Source: Mollicutes bacterium (lineage in GTDB: Bacteria > Bacillota_I > Bacilli_A > RF39 > UBA660). Taken from it: 64,000 bases of DNA. The stretch is from NCBI GenBank assembly GCA_012837765.1, contig DUQO01000018.1, positions 16,014 through 80,013 on the forward strand, written 5' to 3'. The notes beneath the pieces were generated by a model. It was given only the letters and a program-made list of their open reading frames with translations, was not told where the DNA came from and searched no databases. Position numbers and translations under genes: made by a program. Positions 1-8,872 of this stretch are shown one piece after another. Position 1 is the stretch's first letter; every line of letters begins with the position of its first letter.

Positions 1-1095
1 CATTGCTATTGTTCTATTAACTAAATTACCAAGTGAATTAGCTAAATCAGCGTTTATCTTATCAACAATTAGATTATCTGTAATAATTCCATCGTTTGCA
101 TATGGCATTTCGCTTAACAAATAATACCTCACACCATCTACACCATATTTTGACACTAAATCATCGGCATATAGCAAACTTCCCTTTGATTTACTCATTT
201 TACCATCATCCATCAAAAACCATGAATGAGCATATATTTTTTTAGGTAATTGTTCTCCCAAAGCCATTAACATAATAGGCCAATAAATCATATGAAAACG
301 TAAAATGTCTTTTCCTATAATTTGTAAATCAGCAGGCCATAAATTATTGTATAAATCTTCGTGATTTCCATTTACATCATAACCTAAAAAGGTAATATAG
401 TTACTTAAAGCATCTATCCAAACATATATAACATGTTTTTCATCAAAAGAAACAGGTATTCCCCATTTTATTGATGCTCTTGAAACACATAGATCTTGTA
501 ACCCTGGTTTTATAAAATTATTGATTATCTCGTTTTTTCGAGTTGCTGGTTCAATAAAACCTGGATTTTCTTCTATATGCTTTGATAATTGATCAACGTA
601 TTTGCTTAATCTAAAAAAGTACGCTTCTTCACTTGTTCTAATTACTTCTCTTTCACAATCAGGACATTTTTTATCTGTTAATTGTGTTTCAGTAAAAAAC
701 GATTCACAAGGCTTGCAGTACCATCCCTCATATTTACCTAAATATATATCTCCTTGTTTATATAACCTATTAAATATTTCTGATACTTTTTCTTTGTGAA
801 TAGGATCGGTTGTTCTTACAAATTTATCATATGTAGTATTCATCAAATCCCATATTCTAGTTATTTCTTCTACTACCTCATCTACATATTCAATTGGTTT
901 TTTTCCTACCTCAAGAGCCTTATGTTCAATTTTCATACCATGTTCATCTGTACCAGTTTGTAAATAAACATTATAACCTTGCAAGCGTTTATATCTTGCA
1001 ATTGCATCTGCTAATACAATTTCATATGTGTTTCCTATATGCGGTTTTCCTGATGCATAAGCAATGGCTGTTGTTATATAATACTTTTTTCCCAT
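1..1095 (-). CDS. metG: Methionyl-tRNA synthetase, N-terminal part (gene continues past window edge)
   Basis: My translation from the ATG at 1095 on the minus strand gives MGKKYYITTAIAYASGKPHIGNTYEIVLADAIARYKRLQGYNV..., a class I aaRS HIGH-region typical of MetRS. RBS AAGGGAGTG lies 8 nt upstream. The gene is open-ended, so it is absent from the ORF track. Confidence 0.8.
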   Translation of the reverse strand, partial: MGKKYYITTAIAYASGKPHIGNTYEIVLADAIARYKRLQGYNVYLQTGTDEHGMKIEHKALEVGKKPIEYVDEVVEEITRIWDLMNTTYDKFVRTTDPIHKEKVSEIFNRLYKQGDIYLGKYEGWYCKPCESFFTETQLTDKKCPDCEREVIRTSEEAYFFRLSKYVDQLSKHIEENPGFIEPATRKNEIINNFIKPGLQDLCVSRASIKWGIPVSFDEKHVIYVWIDALSNYITFLGYDVNGNHEDLYNNLWPADLQIIGKDILRFHMIYWPIMLMALGEQLPKKIYAHSWFLMDDGKMSKSKGSLLYADDLVSKYGVDGVRYYLLSEMPYANDGIITDNLIVDKINADLANSLGNLVNRTIAM

Positions 1096-1112
1096 TTTTA
1101 AACACTCCCTTA

Positions 1113-1583
1113 TTAATAATCGCTTGTTCTTTCATTTGTAATTTTTGGTTCATCGTCACAAGTTAAAAATTTCACAAACACACCTTGTCCTATTTTGTCT
1201 CCTTTTGAAACTTCCCAGGTTGTTTTTCCTTCATTTTGTAAAACAATGTATAAATGTCCTTCATTGTCTTTGTTATTATAATAATCAGCATCGATTATGC
1301 CTACTTGATTGCATAGTCTTATATTATGCTTAATTCCCATACTGCTTCTAACAACAATCAGTAGTACTTCATCAGGTTCCATCATTACTTTTAACCCTGT
1401 TGGTATTTTTATTTTTTCACCACATTCTAATTTAAACGGAAAAAGCGAATGAAAATCATATCCTGCAGCTTGTTTTGTTCCTCTATTTGGTAATATTAAA
1501 TCGTCATACATTTCTTTAATATTATCATGACCTTTTAAATCCTTTACAAATTGTTCATAACTAATTTTTTCAAACTTTCTCAT
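1113..1583 (-). CDS. dut: dUTP diphosphatase (phage/YosS-like dUTPase fold)
   Basis: Motifs AGYDF, RSSMG, GIIDADY and KGDKIGQ resemble Bacillus YncF/YosS dUTPases. RBS AGAGGTGA present. No terminator before metG, 17 nt downstream. Confidence 0.75.
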   Translation of the reverse strand: MRKFEKISYEQFVKDLKGHDNIKEMYDDLILPNRGTKQAAGYDFHSLFPFKLECGEKIKIPTGLKVMMEPDEVLLIVVRSSMGIKHNIRLCNQVGIIDADYYNNKDNEGHLYIVLQNEGKTTWEVSKGDKIGQGVFVKFLTCDDEPKITNERTSDY

Positions 1584-1587
1584 TTAA

Positions 1588-1806
1588 TCACCTCTATAAA
1601 AAAATCCCTATATTGCAAAAACATAAGGACGAATGATCGCGGTACCACCTTAATTCATAGTAATTACTATGCACTCAAACTTTAACGCAGTAAACGGTCT
1701 TATGACAGCTAAAGGGCCATTTTCCGCAAGTTTTATACTCTTTTTCACCACCCAAGAGTTCTCTATGATAAACACTTGTTTCTCTTCCTTTTCAAAGCCT
1801 TTCAAT
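1588..1806 (-). ncRNA. T-box riboswitch leader upstream of dut-metG
   Basis: Minus strand carries AATTAAGGTGGTACCGCG (T-box consensus AAUUAGGGUGGUACCGCG, 1 mismatch) at 1639-1656. F-box-like CCGTTTAC at 1691-1698. AGAGA and GGUGA stem I elements present. Terminator hairpin TCCTTAT...ATAGGGA plus T7 at 1598-1629 sits immediately before the dut RBS. Confidence 0.7.
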
Positions 1807-1812
1807 GTTTGA

Positions 1813-1841
1813 ATTATATCATATGTTTTTAAAACATTCAA
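1813..1841 (-). promoter_or_regulatory. Sigma-A type promoter for the T-box leader (TTGAAT-17-TATAAT)
   Basis: Read on the minus strand: TTGAATgttttaaaaacatatgaTATAAT. Confidence 0.6.
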
Positions 1842-1891
1842 TAATTAATATCTTTTTATCTAAAACAAAAGTGATTAAATAATCACTTTAT

Positions 1892-2419
1892 TTACATTAT
1901 ATTGCGACTTAAAAATTTAGATACTATTTCTGCTATTTTTCCGTCTATCTCTTTTATTTTATTATCAAGACCTAAAACTAAAACAGATCCTACTACATCA
2001 CCATCTGCAATAATAGGATAGATAATATAAGATGTTTCCTCTTCATTTTCATTATCTATCTTTATTTTAGCTGGATTTTGCTCAGTAACAGTCTGTCGCT
2101 TTAGAATTAATTCACTATATTCAGTATTTAATTCTTGATTTTCATACTTTTTACGTAATGTGGAGGTTGCAGCTACTACTTTATCCCTATCTGTAATTAT
2201 AAGGTTTATTTCCATGGAATCATTTAGAGAATCAACAATTAGTTGAGCAACATCTCCAATCCCTTTTATAGTTGAATGTTTGGATAAAATTATAGAATCA
2301 TCATTAACCATAATTTCCATCAATTCACCATTTCTAATTTTCAAGTTTTTTCTAATTTCTTTTGGAATTACAATACGACCTAAATCATCAATTCGCCTTG
2401 ATACTCCTGTTGATTTCAA
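1892..2419 (-). CDS. spoVT: Stage V sporulation protein T (AbrB-type N-terminus plus GAF-like C-terminus)
   Basis: MKSTGVSRRIDDLGRIVIPKEIRKNL closely matches B. subtilis SpoVT MKATGIVRRIDDLGRVVIPKEIRR. Length is 175 aa. The B. subtilis order pth-mfd-spoVT is conserved. Confidence 0.85.
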   Translation of the reverse strand: MKSTGVSRRIDDLGRIVIPKEIRKNLKIRNGELMEIMVNDDSIILSKHSTIKGIGDVAQLIVDSLNDSMEINLIITDRDKVVAATSTLRKKYENQELNTEYSELILKRQTVTEQNPAKIKIDNENEEETSYIIYPIIADGDVVGSVLVLGLDNKIKEIDGKIAEIVSKFLSRNIM

Positions 2420-2484
2420 ATTATTACCTCTCTTTCCTTATGTCTTTTTTAGTATGTGAAGGTAATAACCATTTATACTTTTAT

Positions 2485-5400
2485 TTAAATAATAGTTAAC
2501 AACTCAATAATATAAAATAACCAGTGTTTATCTAGTTTATTTATATTTAAAATTATTCTTAAGCGATTGCTTTTATATGTAACACTAAAGGCATTAGATA
2601 TGTCGCATGCTTTCATATATAAATCATTTACTTTCATATTTTTAGATGCTTCTTTAGAAAATATTAATTCAACATTTACTTTGGTTTGATTTACCTTTTC
2701 AATTCCCTTTTCTTTCGCTGCCTTTTCAAACCATTCTTCATACATATATATTTCCATTGATTCAGATACTTTTCCAAAACGATCCTCTAATTCACTCTTT
2801 ACTTTTAATAAACTCTCATAACTATCTATTTGATTTATTTTTTGATGAATTTCAATTTTTAAATCATCTTCTTTTACATAATTATCTGTAATATGAGTTT
2901 CTACATCTATTAAAGGTTTCTCTTCAAGTTCCTCATTTTTATCTGACAACTTAGTATTTCCCTTGATTCTATCTATTTCTTCTGCCAGCATCTTTAAATA
3001 TAACTCTATTCCAACACTATCGATAAAGCCGGCTTGTTCTCTACCTAATATATCTCCAGCTCCTCTTATTGATAAATCCCTGAGTGCTATAGAAAATCCA
3101 CTACCTAAAGCCGTAAATTCCTTAATTACGTTTAACCTCTTTTGTGCTGTTTCATTTAATATCTTGTTTTTGCTATACATTAAATATGCATAAGCTATTT
3201 TATTACTTCTTCCTACTCGTCCTCTAATTTGATATAACTGACTCAAGCCAAAATGATCTGCATCCATAATAATTAAAGTATTTACATTTGGAATATCAAT
3301 TCCTGTTTCTATTATTGTAGTGCATAGTAAAACATCATACTCGCCAGCAATAAATTTAATCATCGTATCTTCTATTTTTTGTTTTGGCATTTGCCCATGT
3401 GCAAATGTTACACGTGCATCAGGTACTAATTTTTTTATTTCAACTGCTCTATATTCAATATCAGCAACTTTATTATGCAATAAATATACTTGACCACCTC
3501 TTGATAATTCTTTATAAATAGCATCTTTAATTATGTAATCATTATATTCTAAAACATAAGTTTGAACTGGAAAACGGTTCATTGGTGGTGTTTCAATCAA
3601 AGACAAGTTTTTTATACCAAGCATTGATATTTGTAATGTCCTTGGAATAGGTGTTGCAGATAAGGTTAATACATCTATACTACTTTTGTACTCTTTAATT
3701 TTTTCTTTGTGAGTTACACCAAATCTTTGTTCCTCATCTATTACAAGCAATCCTAAATTATTAAATTTGACGTCTTTGCTGAGTAAGCGATGCGTCCCAA
3801 TTACAAAATCAATAGTTCCTTTGACAAGACCTTTTGTTATTTCTTTTACCTCTTTAGAAGTTGTAAATCTATTTAAAAGAGCTATGTTAACAGCATGATT
3901 TTTAAATCTTTCTATAGCATTTTCATAATGTTGATTAGATAGAATTGTTGTAGGACAAAGGAAAGCAACCTGCTTATTATCTTGTATTGCTTTAAAAATT
4001 GCCCTAAAAGCAACTTCTGTTTTTCCATAACCAACATCTCCACATAATAATCGGTCCATTGGAGAATCTTTTTCCATATCTTCTTTTATTTGAGTTACAG
4101 CTCTAAGTTGATCTCTTGTAGGTTCATATAAAAAGTCCTGTTCAAATTCTAATTGCTCCTTATTATCAGGTGAAAAAGCAAATCCTTTTTTAGCTTCTCT
4201 TTCAGCTGCTGTTTTAAGCAATTTACCAGCAATATCTTGAAGCTTGTTCTTGATGCGTACTTTTGTTTTTTGCCACTCTGTTCCACCTAATTTGTGTAAT
4301 GTTGGCGTTATTCCTTCATTTGATGAGTACTTCCAAATTAAATCAATTTTTTCAACCGGAATATATAATTTGTCATCATCTTTATATTTTATCTGTAAAT
4401 AGTCTTTCTTGACACCTTTTTTTACAAGAGTCTCTATACCACAGTATTTTCCTATTCCATGAATCTGATGAACAACATAGTCTCCTATATTAAGTTTGCT
4501 TAAATCTTTTATTTTTGTGCCATACTTGAATTGACTTTTATAAACTCCTTTAGACTTAATTTTCTTAAATAAGTCACATTCACCAATAACTACAATATCT
4601 TCAATAATAAAACCAGACGCTATTTCTTTTTTTATAACATTAATTTTATTATGCATAATATTATTTTTATCAGTTATGACACAATGTTGTTCTATAAAAA
4701 ATACAAAACTATCTATTTGATTTTTATTTTTTAAACATACAATGACTGTCATACCCAAAGATATATAGCTATTTAAATCATTATTTAGTCGTTCAACATC
4801 ACTTTCATATTTACGAATGGTTTTAATATTATACTTATCTATATATGCAAGTTTTACATCAGGTAAAATGTCATCTATATTCATCACATATAACTCATCT
4901 TCATAATTTATATCTTCAAAACGATTCATATATGATGTGTCTATATTATTTCCGTGCTCCTGATGATAATTAAAGATTTCCTCTTGAAGGTTTAAATAGG
5001 AATTTTTAAGTTGGTTATAATCTATATATACAATAATAGGATTATTGAGATAATCACTAATTTTACTTACATCACCATAAAGCGGCAAATACTTTTGGGC
5101 CTTTTTATCACTATCTACTTCATCTGCAATAAACTCATCAAAGGGATGAATGGTTATCTCATCAATCTTTGAAATTGATAATTGTGTATCTAAATCAAAA
5201 TAACGAATAGATTCAATTTCATCACCCCATAATTCTATTCTAATAGGATTTGATTCACTTATTGGAAAAACATCTACTATATAACCACGTGTACCCATTT
5301 CACCTGTTTTAGTAACTATCGTTTCGTTAGTATATCCTATTTTATATAAATCACTTATGAGCTTTTCCTTACCTATTGTCATACCAGATGACAATTTGAT

Positions 5401-5778
5401 AATACTGTTAATCCATTTTTCTTTCAAAGGAAGAAACCTTAAATATCCCATGAGATGTGTTACAACAAAATGTTTATTATCTGAAGAAATAATTGATTTT
5501 ATTGTTTCTAGACGTGTTACTTTTAGATCTGGGCTAATAGCTAAGGCTTCACTAGTAAGAAAATCATCCATTGGAAAAAGCAATGTATTATTTTCCTCTT
5601 TTTGTAACAATTGTTGTATTTTATTAGCTTCATATAATGAATTAGTTAAAACTATAATATTACGGTTCTGCTCCTTAAATATTTTTTTCAAATAAAGCAC
5701 TAAAAGGTCATCAGTAAAACCTGATAACCCTATTTTTCCACCTTTATAACTTTTAAACAGTTTATCAACGATTTGCAT
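2485..5778 (-). CDS. mfd: Transcription-repair coupling factor
   Basis: 1097 aa with DEAD/helicase motifs GYGKTEVA, DEEQRFGV, SATPIPRT and the QLYQIRGRVGR motif. Confidence 0.9.
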   Translation of the reverse strand: MQIVDKLFKSYKGGKIGLSGFTDDLLVLYLKKIFKEQNRNIIVLTNSLYEANKIQQLLQKEENNTLLFPMDDFLTSEALAISPDLKVTRLETIKSIISSDNKHFVVTHLMGYLRFLPLKEKWINSIIKLSSGMTIGKEKLISDLYKIGYTNETIVTKTGEMGTRGYIVDVFPISESNPIRIELWGDEIESIRYFDLDTQLSISKIDEITIHPFDEFIADEVDSDKKAQKYLPLYGDVSKISDYLNNPIIVYIDYNQLKNSYLNLQEEIFNYHQEHGNNIDTSYMNRFEDINYEDELYVMNIDDILPDVKLAYIDKYNIKTIRKYESDVERLNNDLNSYISLGMTVIVCLKNKNQIDSFVFFIEQHCVITDKNNIMHNKINVIKKEIASGFIIEDIVVIGECDLFKKIKSKGVYKSQFKYGTKIKDLSKLNIGDYVVHQIHGIGKYCGIETLVKKGVKKDYLQIKYKDDDKLYIPVEKIDLIWKYSSNEGITPTLHKLGGTEWQKTKVRIKNKLQDIAGKLLKTAAEREAKKGFAFSPDNKEQLEFEQDFLYEPTRDQLRAVTQIKEDMEKDSPMDRLLCGDVGYGKTEVAFRAIFKAIQDNKQVAFLCPTTILSNQHYENAIERFKNHAVNIALLNRFTTSKEVKEITKGLVKGTIDFVIGTHRLLSKDVKFNNLGLLVIDEEQRFGVTHKEKIKEYKSSIDVLTLSATPIPRTLQISMLGIKNLSLIETPPMNRFPVQTYVLEYNDYIIKDAIYKELSRGGQVYLLHNKVADIEYRAVEIKKLVPDARVTFAHGQMPKQKIEDTMIKFIAGEYDVLLCTTIIETGIDIPNVNTLIIMDADHFGLSQLYQIRGRVGRSNKIAYAYLMYSKNKILNETAQKRLNVIKEFTALGSGFSIALRDLSIRGAGDILGREQAGFIDSVGIELYLKMLAEEIDRIKGNTKLSDKNEELEEKPLIDVETHITDNYVKEDDLKIEIHQKINQIDSYESLLKVKSELEDRFGKVSESMEIYMYEEWFEKAAKEKGIEKVNQTKVNVELIFSKEASKNMKVNDLYMKACDISNAFSVTYKSNRLRIILNINKLDKHWLFYIIELLTII

Positions 5779-5790
5779 TTAAGCACATCC

Positions 5791-6354
5791 TCATCTGCGT
5801 CCATTGTATTTGTTCATGAGATTGATAAAATCCATTTTTATAAAATCTATTAAAATGTCTTTGGTTTCTTCTAAAATTTCTTCTAGTATTTCTTTTTCCC
5901 CTTTTGAAAAATGCCCTAACACATAATCTCTTGCATCAATATCCTTATTATTTGAAATTCCAATTTTTAATCTTTTATATTCTTGAGTAGATAAATGTTG
6001 TTCTATATTTTTCAAACCATTATGTCCTGCTGAACCACCTTGCATTTTTAATTTATAAGTTCCTAATTTTAAATCTAAGTCATCATTAACAACTAAAATA
6101 TCATTAACATCAATTTTAAAGTATCGCATGAAATCTGCTATTACTTGGCCTGATAAATTAATATAATGTTGAGGTTTTAATAATATTACTTTTTCGCCAT
6201 CAATATTAACTTCAGTATATAAAGACCCTTTAAATTTTTTGTTAATTACTACCCCTAATGATGAAGCTAAAAAATCAATAACCATAAAACCTACGTTATG
6301 TCTAGTATTCTGATACTCTTTCCCTGGATTTCCTAAACCAACGATCAATTTCAT
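5791..6354 (-). CDS. pth: Peptidyl-tRNA hydrolase
   Basis: MKLIVGLGNPGKEYQNTRHNVGF. Start placed at the internal Met to avoid overlapping the upstream gene. Confidence 0.85.
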   Translation of the reverse strand: MKLIVGLGNPGKEYQNTRHNVGFMVIDFLASSLGVVINKKFKGSLYTEVNIDGEKVILLKPQHYINLSGQVIADFMRYFKIDVNDILVVNDDLDLKLGTYKLKMQGGSAGHNGLKNIEQHLSTQEYKRLKIGISNNKDIDARDYVLGHFSKGEKEILEEILEETKDILIDFIKMDFINLMNKYNGRR

Positions 6355-6358
6355 ACAA

Positions 6359-7081
6359 TCACTCTCCAAACATCTTTCTAACTTCCCTAGTGTAGTTTCC
6401 TTTCCTGTCATGTACAAAAAGAGGCGATTCTATTTTTATACCTTCTTTTCCATTTTTAATTCCTTCAATCAAAATAATGTTACAAGTTTCATCTTTATTA
6501 GGATAAATAAAGCGAATACGCTTCGGTTCAATATTATACTCTTTCATTTTATTCAATATTTCAATCATTCTATCAGGACGATGAACTATTCCAAAATAGC
6601 CTTGGTTTTTCAACAATTTTTTTGATACTTTTAAAATGTCATCAATATTTAACATTACTTCATGCCTTGCGACGGTCTTACAATAATTATTATTAACAAG
6701 ACTATCTTTATTATATTTAAAATATGGTGGATTTGATAACACTATATCAAAAGAGTCAGAATCAAAATGTTTATCTATTGTCCTTACATCTTCATTTAAT
6801 ATTTTGATTTGGTTTTTTAAGTTGTTAATTTCTACAGATTTGATAGCAAGTTGATATATAGGCTCTTGTATTTCTACACCTATAATATTAGCATTGGTTC
6901 TCGTTGATAACAGTAAAGGAATAGGTGCATTACCTGTTCCTAAATCAATGATGTTTTTAACTTTAGATCGAATAGTAATGAAGTTAGCAAGTAAAACAGA
7001 ATCAAGTGAAAAATTAAAATACTCTGTATTTTGCACTATCTTCATTCCTTCATATCCTACTAAATAATTAATTACTTCCAT
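6359..7081 (-). CDS. SAM-dependent N6-adenine methyltransferase, YabB/TrmN6-like (tRNA m6A37)
   Basis: GTGNAPIPLL SAM motif and NPPYF catalytic motif. Position after ricT matches B. subtilis yabB. Confidence 0.6.
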   Translation of the reverse strand: MEVINYLVGYEGMKIVQNTEYFNFSLDSVLLANFITIRSKVKNIIDLGTGNAPIPLLLSTRTNANIIGVEIQEPIYQLAIKSVEINNLKNQIKILNEDVRTIDKHFDSDSFDIVLSNPPYFKYNKDSLVNNNYCKTVARHEVMLNIDDILKVSKKLLKNQGYFGIVHRPDRMIEILNKMKEYNIEPKRIRFIYPNKDETCNIILIEGIKNGKEGIKIESPLFVHDRKGNYTREVRKMFGE

Positions 7082-7862
7082 TTTCGGCCTTTATAGTAAA
7101 AATTCCGTTATTTGGTACATCAACTTGATATGTTTGAGATAAGGCATCAATTGATATAACCCGTCCATAACCCTCTTTTGTTTCAACAAGTTGTCCAACT
7201 TCAGGTAATGTTTTTTTAGCTTCAGTATAAGTATCGTTTTCGTATGTTAAACAACATAGAAGACGACCACACGAACCATTTATCTTACTTGGATTTAAAG
7301 CTATATTTTGATTTTTAGCCATATTTATAGAAACACTATCAAAATCATATAAAAAATTAGTACAACATAAAACTCTTCCACATGGACCAACACCGCCAAC
7401 AGCCCTAGCTTTATCTCTTATTCCGATTTGTCTAAGCTCTATACGAGTACGATAAATAGAGGCTAGATCTTTTGCTAGTTCCCTAAAATCTATTCGAGAA
7501 TCTGCAGTAAAATGAAAGAGTAATTGTTTACGATCTAATGTAAAACTAGCATCTATTAAATTCATATTAAGTTTATGTTTCTCAATTAGTTTTTTACTTT
7601 CTTTAAAAGCATTTTCACTATCAATTAAATTTCTTTTATGATTTGCTATATCTTCTTTCGTGGCAATTCTAATTACATTTTTAAGTGGTAAATTGATATT
7701 TTCCTTTTTAACTTTAGTTTTTTCAATTATAACTCTTCCAAGTTGTATTCCTCTTTCTGTTTCAACAACTACATCCATATCCTTACTTAAGTTGTGTCCA
7801 GCGGGAGAAAAATAATATGTACGTCCCTTTTCTTCAAATGTAATTCCAACTACATCTATCAT
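7068..7862 (-). CDS. ricT: PSP1 C-terminal domain protein RicT/YaaT
   Basis: N-terminus and Cys cluster GGVGPCGRVLCC as in YaaT. Located downstream of holB as in B. subtilis. Confidence 0.7.
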   Translation of the reverse strand: MIDVVGITFEEKGRTYYFSPAGHNLSKDMDVVVETERGIQLGRVIIEKTKVKKENINLPLKNVIRIATKEDIANHKRNLIDSENAFKESKKLIEKHKLNMNLIDASFTLDRKQLLFHFTADSRIDFRELAKDLASIYRTRIELRQIGIRDKARAVGGVGPCGRVLCCTNFLYDFDSVSINMAKNQNIALNPSKINGSCGRLLCCLTYENDTYTEAKKTLPEVGQLVETKEGYGRVISIDALSQTYQVDVPNNGIFTIKAENGSN

Positions 7863-8872
7863 ATAAGTTCACCACTTTCCATCTCATATACTAACTTGTC
7901 CATCAGTAAATTAACATTTATATTATACTTTATTTTTTCTTTTGCCAACAATATTTTTTTTAATTTAAACATAATAACATCAATATCTTCTTTTGAAGCT
8001 AGATCCTTAATATCTTCAATATAATCATCAAAAATTTCTAATTTCCTGTTTAATTTATTATTTAATATATCCTTATAAAAAAGAATCATTATATCGAACG
8101 CCCATATTAAGCTGTTTTTATCATAAAATAAATCTATCCATGCTTTTTTTAATTCTGTAATAAAATCCATCTTCAGGGTTTCATATTTTTTAATGAACGA
8201 AATAATTGATTCTATTTTTTGAAAATTAGATTCATTAGATATAAATTCATTTAATTCGTTTGGGTTATTATAATATAACTTTCCAATCTTTATAAATGTT
8301 TTTCTATCTTCATTGTCTATAACGATATCTTCTATATCATTATTTTCTTCTTTTCTCAAATGAATAACTTGACACCTTGACGTTATAGTATTTAAAACGG
8401 AATGAATATCATCCGTTGTAAGTATCGCAATAATATTAGGAGCTGGTTCCTCTAAAAATTTTAATATACTATTTGCTGCCTGTATATTTAACTTATCAGC
8501 TCCCTGGATAATATATACTTTTTTAGTTCCTTCAAGTGGTTTCATTTTAAATTCTTCTTGTAGTTCTTTTAACTGGTCCTTTTTTATCCATAAACCATCT
8601 GGTTCTATGATTTTTAATTCGGTAAAGTTTTTATTGTCAATACGACGACAAATTGTACAATTACCACAAGTCTTATTATCTAAATAATTATTAGGACATA
8701 AAAGTGTTTTTGCGAATGAAAAAGCGAAAGATGATGCGCTTCTAATATTATCAGAGTGAAATAGGTATGCATGGGCAAGTTTATTGTTTTTTATTTCATT
8801 CTTTATAATATTATAAGCAATAGGTTGTCCATCTTTATGATCACCTAACATATAACACCTCCTAATATACAA
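7859..8872 (-). CDS. holB: DNA polymerase III delta-prime subunit
   Basis: AHAYLFHS..., zinc module CGNCTICRRI, AAA+ clamp-loader-like. Confidence 0.8.
   Translation of the reverse strand: MYIRRCYMLGDHKDGQPIAYNIIKNEIKNNKLAHAYLFHSDNIRSASSFAFSFAKTLLCPNNYLDNKTCGNCTICRRIDNKNFTELKIIEPDGLWIKKDQLKELQEEFKMKPLEGTKKVYIIQGADKLNIQAANSILKFLEEPAPNIIAILTTDDIHSVLNTITSRCQVIHLRKEENNDIEDIVIDNEDRKTFIKIGKLYYNNPNELNEFISNESNFQKIESIISFIKKYETLKMDFITELKKAWIDLFYDKNSLIWAFDIMILFYKDILNNKLNRKLEIFDDYIEDIKDLASKEDIDVIMFKLKKILLAKEKIKYNINVNLLMDKLVYEMESGELI

Follow-up and report, generated by a model that had tools for sequence, protein, structure and literature searches.

A methionine-type T-box leader precedes a dut-like gene and metG in a Mollicutes bacterium

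The DNA analysed here, referred to as the window, is a 64,000-nt stretch of contig DUQO01000018.1 from a Mollicutes bacterium, with a GC content of 27.6%. Close to its start, and on the minus strand, a T-box leader RNA (1622..1804(-)) is followed by a dut-like gene encoding a protein of 156 amino acids (1583..1113(-)) and by the first 365 codons of metG (1..1095(-)), which begins with ATG at 1095 and continues past the window start. The Rfam scan found this leader to be the sole T-box within the window; the only other Rfam family matched is the bacterial small SRP RNA (RF00169, 12305..12208(-), 61.5 bits). No tRNA genes were found in the 64-kb window.

A first-pass annotation, made from the sequence alone, had proposed a T-box riboswitch at this position, and the Rfam covariance-model scan bears this out. 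RF00230 matches 1804..1622(-) over its full length (model positions 1-219) with 107.9 bits (E 7.1e-23; curated gathering score 93). We relied on the covariance model for this assignment rather than on the minimum free energy (MFE) of the whole leader, which was no better than that of shuffled sequences (z 0.04); such values are usual for T-boxes and uninformative. Of stem I, the RF00230 alignment shows the base and the 5' S-turn strand, and both the AG bulge (AGAGA) and the distal loop (GGUGGUGAAA) align to the consensus. The 3' strand of the specifier loop reads GGAA-A-AUG-G and also aligns to the consensus (GAA-A-AUG-G-CC in the model alignment), which places the methionine specifier codon AUG at 1720..1718(-), followed by the purine G1717. 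An AUG specifier had been suspected within 1717-1725, the reverse complement of which, GGAAAAUGG, contains this codon. AUG followed by a purine occupies the same specifier column in about 30 related metG-linked leaders, and here too the specifier agrees with the synthetase gene downstream, metG.

The remaining elements follow in the expected order. Stem II is reduced to 3 bp (GUC-AUAA-GAC), the F-box GCGUUA is present in stem IIA/B of the model alignment, and stem III pairs CAUAGU with ACUAUG. The T-box sequence AAUUAAGGUGGUACCGCG (1655..1638(-)) carries the UGGU tRNA-acceptor-binding bulge at 1647..1644. In the stem I K-turn (1709-1716(-) and 1790-1797(-)), the 5' UGA is present, and the 3' strand reads UUAG where the consensus has GGAG; the UUAG variant also occurs in L122 and L124, the most similar metagenome leaders, and in L053. 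The T-box sequence, F-box and stem I elements named in the first-pass annotation are thus all present. Its RNA strings are minus-strand reads, although it gave no strand itself.

The expression platform is of the classical terminator/antiterminator design. The antiterminator (1651..1625(-)), seen in the centroid fold and in the RF00230 consensus structure, consists of helix A1 (AAGG/CCUU), a 7-nt bulge (UGGUACC) and helix A2 (GCGA/UCGU), and alone folds at about -5.7 kcal/mol. The intrinsic terminator (1630..1598(-)), likewise anticipated, is an 11-bp hairpin, GUCCUUAUGUU-UUUGC-AAUAUAGGGAU (1630..1604), followed by a U7 tract (1604..1598). Its hairpin folds at -10 kcal/mol, far below shuffled sequences (z = -4.4; 1 of 200 shuffles as good). 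The 5' arm of the terminator is the 3' strand of the antiterminator, with the strand ...GUCCUU... common to both folds, so that the two structures are mutually exclusive. The terminator stem is rich in A and U and contains just 2 G-C pairs. A simple terminator scan of 1..2600 found no terminator, although direct folding shows the hairpin at 1630..1604, because the scan rule requires at least 3 G-C pairs; its silence does not reflect a true absence. About 15 nt separate the U-tract from the dut ribosome-binding site (RBS).

Directly 5' of the RF00230 match lies a promoter-like site (1841..1813(-)) with a -35 hexamer TTGAAT (1841..1836), a 17-nt spacer and an extended -10 element, TGaTATAAT (10/12 consensus matches, TG present). 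The transcript start predicted from it lies a few nucleotides 5' of the start of the T-box model. In this region of 27.6% GC, promoter-like sites are not enriched over shuffled sequences (15 found against 18 expected), so position alone supports the site. We infer from that position that it acts as the leader promoter, as the first-pass annotation had supposed.

The gene behind the leader starts at 1583, with an RBS, GAGGUG, at 1594..1589. Its product matches Pfam PF00692 (53.9 bits against a gathering score of 22, E 2e-14) and aligns best with the Streptococcus mutans dUTPase 3H6X (E 3e-26). We tested the motif patterns of trimeric dUTPases (AGxD; RSS; G-x-ID-x-DY; G-x-x-x-x-Q; and, for motif V, R-G-x-G-G-F-G-S-T-G). 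Aligned with 3H6X and Escherichia coli Dut, motifs I-IV are intact (AAGYDF, VRSSMG, GIIDADYY and GDKIGQG). With 3H6X and PRK13956-type trimeric dUTPases, the protein shares LP(K/N)R-T-x-x-AAGYD, RSS, the extended motif III IDxDYYNNxxNEGH and the motif IV GxxxxQG. The glycine-rich motif V, sought at the C-terminus, is absent. The protein stops at ...E-R-T-S-D-Y (window 1113-1130(-)), whereas 3H6X (148 aa) goes on with R-T-G and its last 7 residues. Only the arginine and an aromatic residue at +4 are retained of motif V, which reads R-x-G-G-[IFL]-G-S-T at the corresponding stretch of those relatives that bear it. The short R-x-S-D-Y-stop end is conserved in about 40 of the 80 related loci described below. 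Motif V normally closes the dUTPase active site over the phosphates and uracil (PMC12524310).

All three NCBIfam dUTP diphosphatase models matched by the product score below their cutoffs: the equivalog PRK13956 at 114.4 bits (cutoff 223), the superfamily model TIGR00576 at 87.3 bits (cutoff 102.55) and the equivalog PRK00601 at 77.8 bits (cutoff 103). The earlier designation dut therefore stands as to family but goes too far as to function, given these scores and the missing glycine-rich motif. The gene is best called dut-like, and dUTPase activity of its product is plausible.

The second gene is metG. Its 365-aa fragment matches PRK12267 with 582 bits and TIGR00398 with 422.8 bits (cutoff 336), the HIGN and KMSKS signatures are seen within it, and the full-length protein on matching metagenome contigs (L081-L085) has 516 aa. 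The spacer between the two genes, UAAGGGAGUGUUUAAAA (1112..1096(-)), measures 17 nt and contains only the metG RBS, AGGGAG. Neither a scan nor the sequence itself revealed a terminator or promoter within it, and a gap of this length leaves no room for either, in keeping with the proposal that dut runs into metG without a terminator. With a covariance-model score over the leader and an uninterrupted junction between the genes, the first-pass reading stands at the two points where it was most exposed. No clear terminator was found 3' of metG on the metagenome contigs.

An identical Dut protein is encoded on 11 metagenome contigs. Among the six of these that were listed, dut is directly followed by metG in all six, and spoVT precedes the leader in every listed contig that reaches far enough upstream. 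The gene order was read from the window (1892-8872(-)) and L081, and begins with a holB-like gene. On the longest contig it runs from PSP1/yaaT-like through methyltransferase, pth, mfd, spoVT, leader and dut to metG (516 aa), after which come a small ORF, tatD, yabE-like, ksgA, yabG, veg, spoVG and yabP. This gene order and the low GC content point to an uncultured low-GC gut bacterium that keeps sporulation-associated genes. In the closest GTDB genomes, all of them metagenome-assembled genomes (MAGs) of uncultured gut 'Bacilli', 'Clostridia' or 'Tenericutes', Dut is only about 60% identical.

We compared the locus with 80 species-level loci from relatives, which are uncultured gut Bacilli (L001-L080). 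A T-box lies upstream of the dut-like gene in 46 of the 80, and in 45 a T-box motif is located some 60 nt before the start of dut. Among these 45 T-box loci, metG follows 8-35 nt after dut in 39, usually with spoVT and often with mfd upstream. Four loci have dut-metG with no T-box at E <= 0.01, and in about 30 a homologue of dut stands in an unrelated context. No other arrangement is as common in the lineage as T-box-dut-metG. The first-pass annotation had called a dUTPase gene in a T-box-controlled synthetase operon unusual, which holds relative to the literature but not within this lineage.

The dut-like gene also stands behind the leaders of other synthetase genes. Leader-dut-tyrS occurs in L059 (3826-5657), L061 and L039 (TIGR00234, 367 bits), leader-dut-valS in L020 (3739-6910; PRK13208 985 bits, Rfam T-box 124.8 bits) and leader-dut-thrS in L053 (50-2674; TIGR00418 742 bits, Rfam T-box 77 bits). 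Further loci with a dut-like gene behind tyrS, valS or thrS T-boxes are L088-L097, L094, L110-L111, L120-L132 and L148-L159. A metagenome scan seeded with these Dut-locus proteins added about 16 tyrS-, 6 thrS- and 34 metG-linked loci, in which the gap from dut to the synthetase gene is mostly 8-35 nt. Across the T-box-linked loci the specifier agrees with the synthetase downstream: AUG plus purine with metG, UAC plus A or U with tyrS, ACC or ACU plus A with thrS, and GUA plus G with valS, the one exception being a small metG-linked clade with GUG. The leaders are thus tuned to the synthetase and not to dut, and the four genomes with dut-metG but no T-box, together with the roughly 30 unrelated contexts, indicate that dut does not need a T-box.

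Several relatives depart from the two-gene layout. In L011 (2802-5681), the only one of the 80 loci with the order T-box, HAD/YjjG-like nucleotidase gene, dut, metG, a HAD-type hydrolase gene lies between the Met T-box and dut-metG; its product best matches YjjG-like and pyrimidine 5'-nucleotidase-like models, all below cutoff. One MAG, RGIG4073, carries two dut-like copies (L002 and L068), one T-box-linked with an extra 341-aa ORF of unassigned family before metG, the other in an unrelated context. In the 190-nt dut-thrS gap of L053, a possible ORF of 66 codons with coiled-coil-like character (732-932) overlaps the dut stop by 11 nt and also the thrS start (TAATG). In L138 (3501-4391), a different sequence of about 150 codons has either joined the dut-like gene at its 3' end or broken into it there, so that no metG comes next within the contig; as a guess, this sequence is a mobile-element insertion.

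The leaders of relatives also include variants that are absent from the window. Eight species-level loci (L027, L050, L028, L040, L041, L054, L057 and L071) and the metagenome contig L121 have GUG plus purine instead of AUG plus purine, and the gene downstream is still a bona fide metG (L027 MetRS, 802 bits). In L027 the specifier region lies at about 3860-3875, where Rfam's own alignment is ambiguous. For the anticodon CAU to read GUG, the first codon position would have to form a G.U pair, as happens at GUG start codons. A minimal stem I is found in the tyrS-linked leaders L059 (3861-3900), L061 (2965-3010), L039 (3341-3375), L077, L109, L110, L126, L130 and L132. It consists of a base helix, a K-turn-like GA element and a 4-bp helix whose 9-nt terminal loop carries UAC-A. 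Distal stem I and stem II are both missing from these leaders, which score 55-63 bits with Rfam, below threshold, and a promoter immediately upstream leaves no room for more; other tyrS-linked leaders retain the full stem I.

Terminators vary as well. Of 100 leaders folded, 37 have what we call nested terminators (for example, L039 3398-3475, L059 3920-3990, L015 and L133), in which the hairpin next to the U-tract is a downward extension of the antiterminator. Its 5' arm joins the stem III 3' strand to AAUUAAGG, from the 5' side of helix A1. Because this arm uses the stem III strand, such a terminator competes with stem III and not with A1/A2. We assessed it with an alignment-free comparison of own and swapped duplexes, having dropped column pair counting on account of MAFFT drift in the 3' arm. 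Arms paired with their own partners gave -6.98 kcal/mol, against -5.99 kcal/mol when swapped between leaders (permutation p = 1e-4), a difference that is uncontrolled for relatedness and stems from divergent leaders, L015 and L133 among them. A third terminator design, in L008, L031, L048 and L074, pairs into the T-box motif itself.

Neighbour-joining trees of the short Dut protein are poorly resolved. The T-box-metG context is found on most of their deep branches, tyrS-, thrS- and valS-linked copies occupy several derived positions, and most unlinked R-x-S-D-Y copies group in a single derived clade. L020, with a Val leader, and L060, with a Met leader, are reciprocal nearest neighbours (leader 68%, Dut 72%), by small margins over other pairs. 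We read these patterns as suggesting that T-box-dut-metG is ancestral in the lineage and that the synthetase partner was exchanged on several occasions. That dut always holds the same slot could be due to selection or to recombination favoured at the conserved T-box sequence.

In its architecture the leader resembles the synthetase T-box leaders of Firmicutes (RF00230; archetype Bacillus subtilis tyrS). It has the same stem I with specifier loop, AG bulge and distal loop; the same order of stem IIA/B with F-box, stem III and a T-box sequence of 14-18 nt with a UGGN bulge; the same use of the antiterminator 3' strand as terminator 5' arm; and a synthetase gene as target. It differs in the 3-bp stem II, in the K-turn 3' strand UUAG and in having a dUTPase-like, non-amino-acid gene between leader and synthetase gene. 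An experimentally characterised Met-specific T-box is the met leader of Staphylococcus aureus metICFE-mdh (PMC3771891). Both leaders have an AUG specifier and a terminator overlapping the T-box; the S. aureus leader senses uncharged methionyl-tRNA (PMC3771891), as would the window leader to judge by its sequence. However, the S. aureus leader controls methionine biosynthesis genes and prefers initiator tRNA-fMet (PMC3771891), whereas dut and metG are the targets in the window. According to the reviews and comparative studies consulted (PMC3766115, PMC2494555), T-box regulons consist of aminoacyl-tRNA synthetases, genes of amino-acid biosynthesis and transporters, with no mention of dut, and a full-text search found no link between dut or dUTPase and a T-box in the literature searched. 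The riboswitch is thus a textbook Met T-box before metG and mechanistically nothing new; the content of the operon is unusual relative to the literature searched and typical for the lineage.

Taken together, it is very probable that a canonical, transcription-attenuating tRNA-Met T-box controls a two-gene operon made up of a passenger dut-like gene and metG. Following this logic, transcription would start from the extended -10 promoter at 1841..1813(-), and the AUG of stem I would face the CAU anticodon of tRNA-Met. When the tRNA-Met is uncharged, its free ACCA end would pair with the UGGU bulge and stabilize the antiterminator (1651..1625), allowing RNA polymerase to continue into dut and metG. 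With charged tRNA-Met, the terminator (1630..1604 plus U7), as the more stable structure, would form and transcription would stop about 15 nt before the dut RBS. Regulation would serve the synthetase, with the dut-like gene as a co-transcribed passenger that receives all its expression via the leader. We read this passenger arrangement as ancestral and widespread in low-GC uncultured gut Bacilli. A rationale for dut under a Met T-box based on methionine, folate and thymidylate metabolism was set aside as the main explanation, since the same gene stands under Tyr, Thr and Val T-boxes.

The retention of the dut-like gene directly behind the T-boxes of four synthetase genes counts against a plain passenger, since a purely neutral one is not an easy explanation for it. 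A less probable alternative is that dut is kept behind T-boxes by selection, the cell gaining from more dUTP sanitation, or from another activity of Dut, when charging falls or translation demand rises; dut would then be a genuine member of the T-box regulon. The same family is the leader-proximal cistron in metG, tyrS, thrS and valS T-box operons, the T-box-linked copies fall in several places of the Dut tree, and repeated chance moves into a slot of a few nucleotides between T-box terminator and synthetase start are very unlikely. The pyrimidine-nucleotidase-like (HAD/YjjG-like) gene between T-box and dut in L011 would be a second gene of this kind. However, the specifier follows the synthetase and never anything related to dut, and the loci with dut-metG but no T-box, or with the homologue elsewhere, speak against this reading. 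Recombination between conserved T-box sequences could bias the landing site, and the Dut tree is too poorly resolved for independent events to be counted on it. We also know of no biochemical link between dUTP hydrolysis and tRNA charging. The broader proposition, that a Dut-family protein was repeatedly placed or retained as first cistron of Met, Tyr, Thr and Val T-box operons, reflecting either selected coupling of charging to dUTP sanitation or a non-enzymatic role of the often motif-V-less Dut, we regard as rather doubtful.

We consider it unlikely that the T-box mainly controls dut while metG is transcribed largely from its own promoter inside the dut coding region. A promoter-like site does lie there (1303..1275(-), TAGGCA-17-TATAAT, 10/12 matches), and some T-box-independent metG transcription may start from it. 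However, its -35 element is poor, its -10 hexamer simply coincides with the codons of the conserved motif III residues D-Y-Y-N-N, such matches are no more frequent than in shuffled sequences, and the AUG specifier makes regulatory sense only for metG. Less probable still is a leader devoid of any regulatory role, as a T-box remnant in decay or one that is read through constitutively. The weak, AU-rich terminator, the K-turn variant, the reduced stem II and the loss of the T-box altogether in some relatives would fit such decay, but RF00230 matches from end to end with a score over the curated threshold, the functional elements are all intact, shuffled sequences fold far less stably than the terminator, and leaders with matching specifiers are kept across dozens of species.

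That the mechanical 63-aa ORF over promoter and leader (1841..1650(-)) is a real small-protein gene and the RNA match a coincidence is highly improbable: the frame is open for 63 codons and one metagenome gene caller predicted a product of 32 aa there, but the same bases match the RNA model (E 7e-23), the TTG start is the -35 hexamer, there is no RBS, the leaders of relatives are set apart by many indels whose lengths are not divisible by three, and the called product has no Pfam match. As the first-pass annotation had concluded, the ORF is not a gene.

What stands out at this locus is a dUTPase-family gene that, as we infer, depends entirely on T-box read-through for its transcription, and the recurrence of the same dut-like slot in metG, tyrS, thrS and valS operons across many uncultured gut Bacilli. 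The related leaders form a compact natural series of T-box variants, some with a mini stem I, some with GUG ahead of metG and some with terminators in competition with stem III. A selected coupling would tie DNA-precursor sanitation to translational status and, if true, make dut the first gene of nucleotide metabolism in a T-box regulon. If the coupling is neutral, the locus would be a clear case of conserved leader sequences shaping operon evolution in small, AT-rich genomes.
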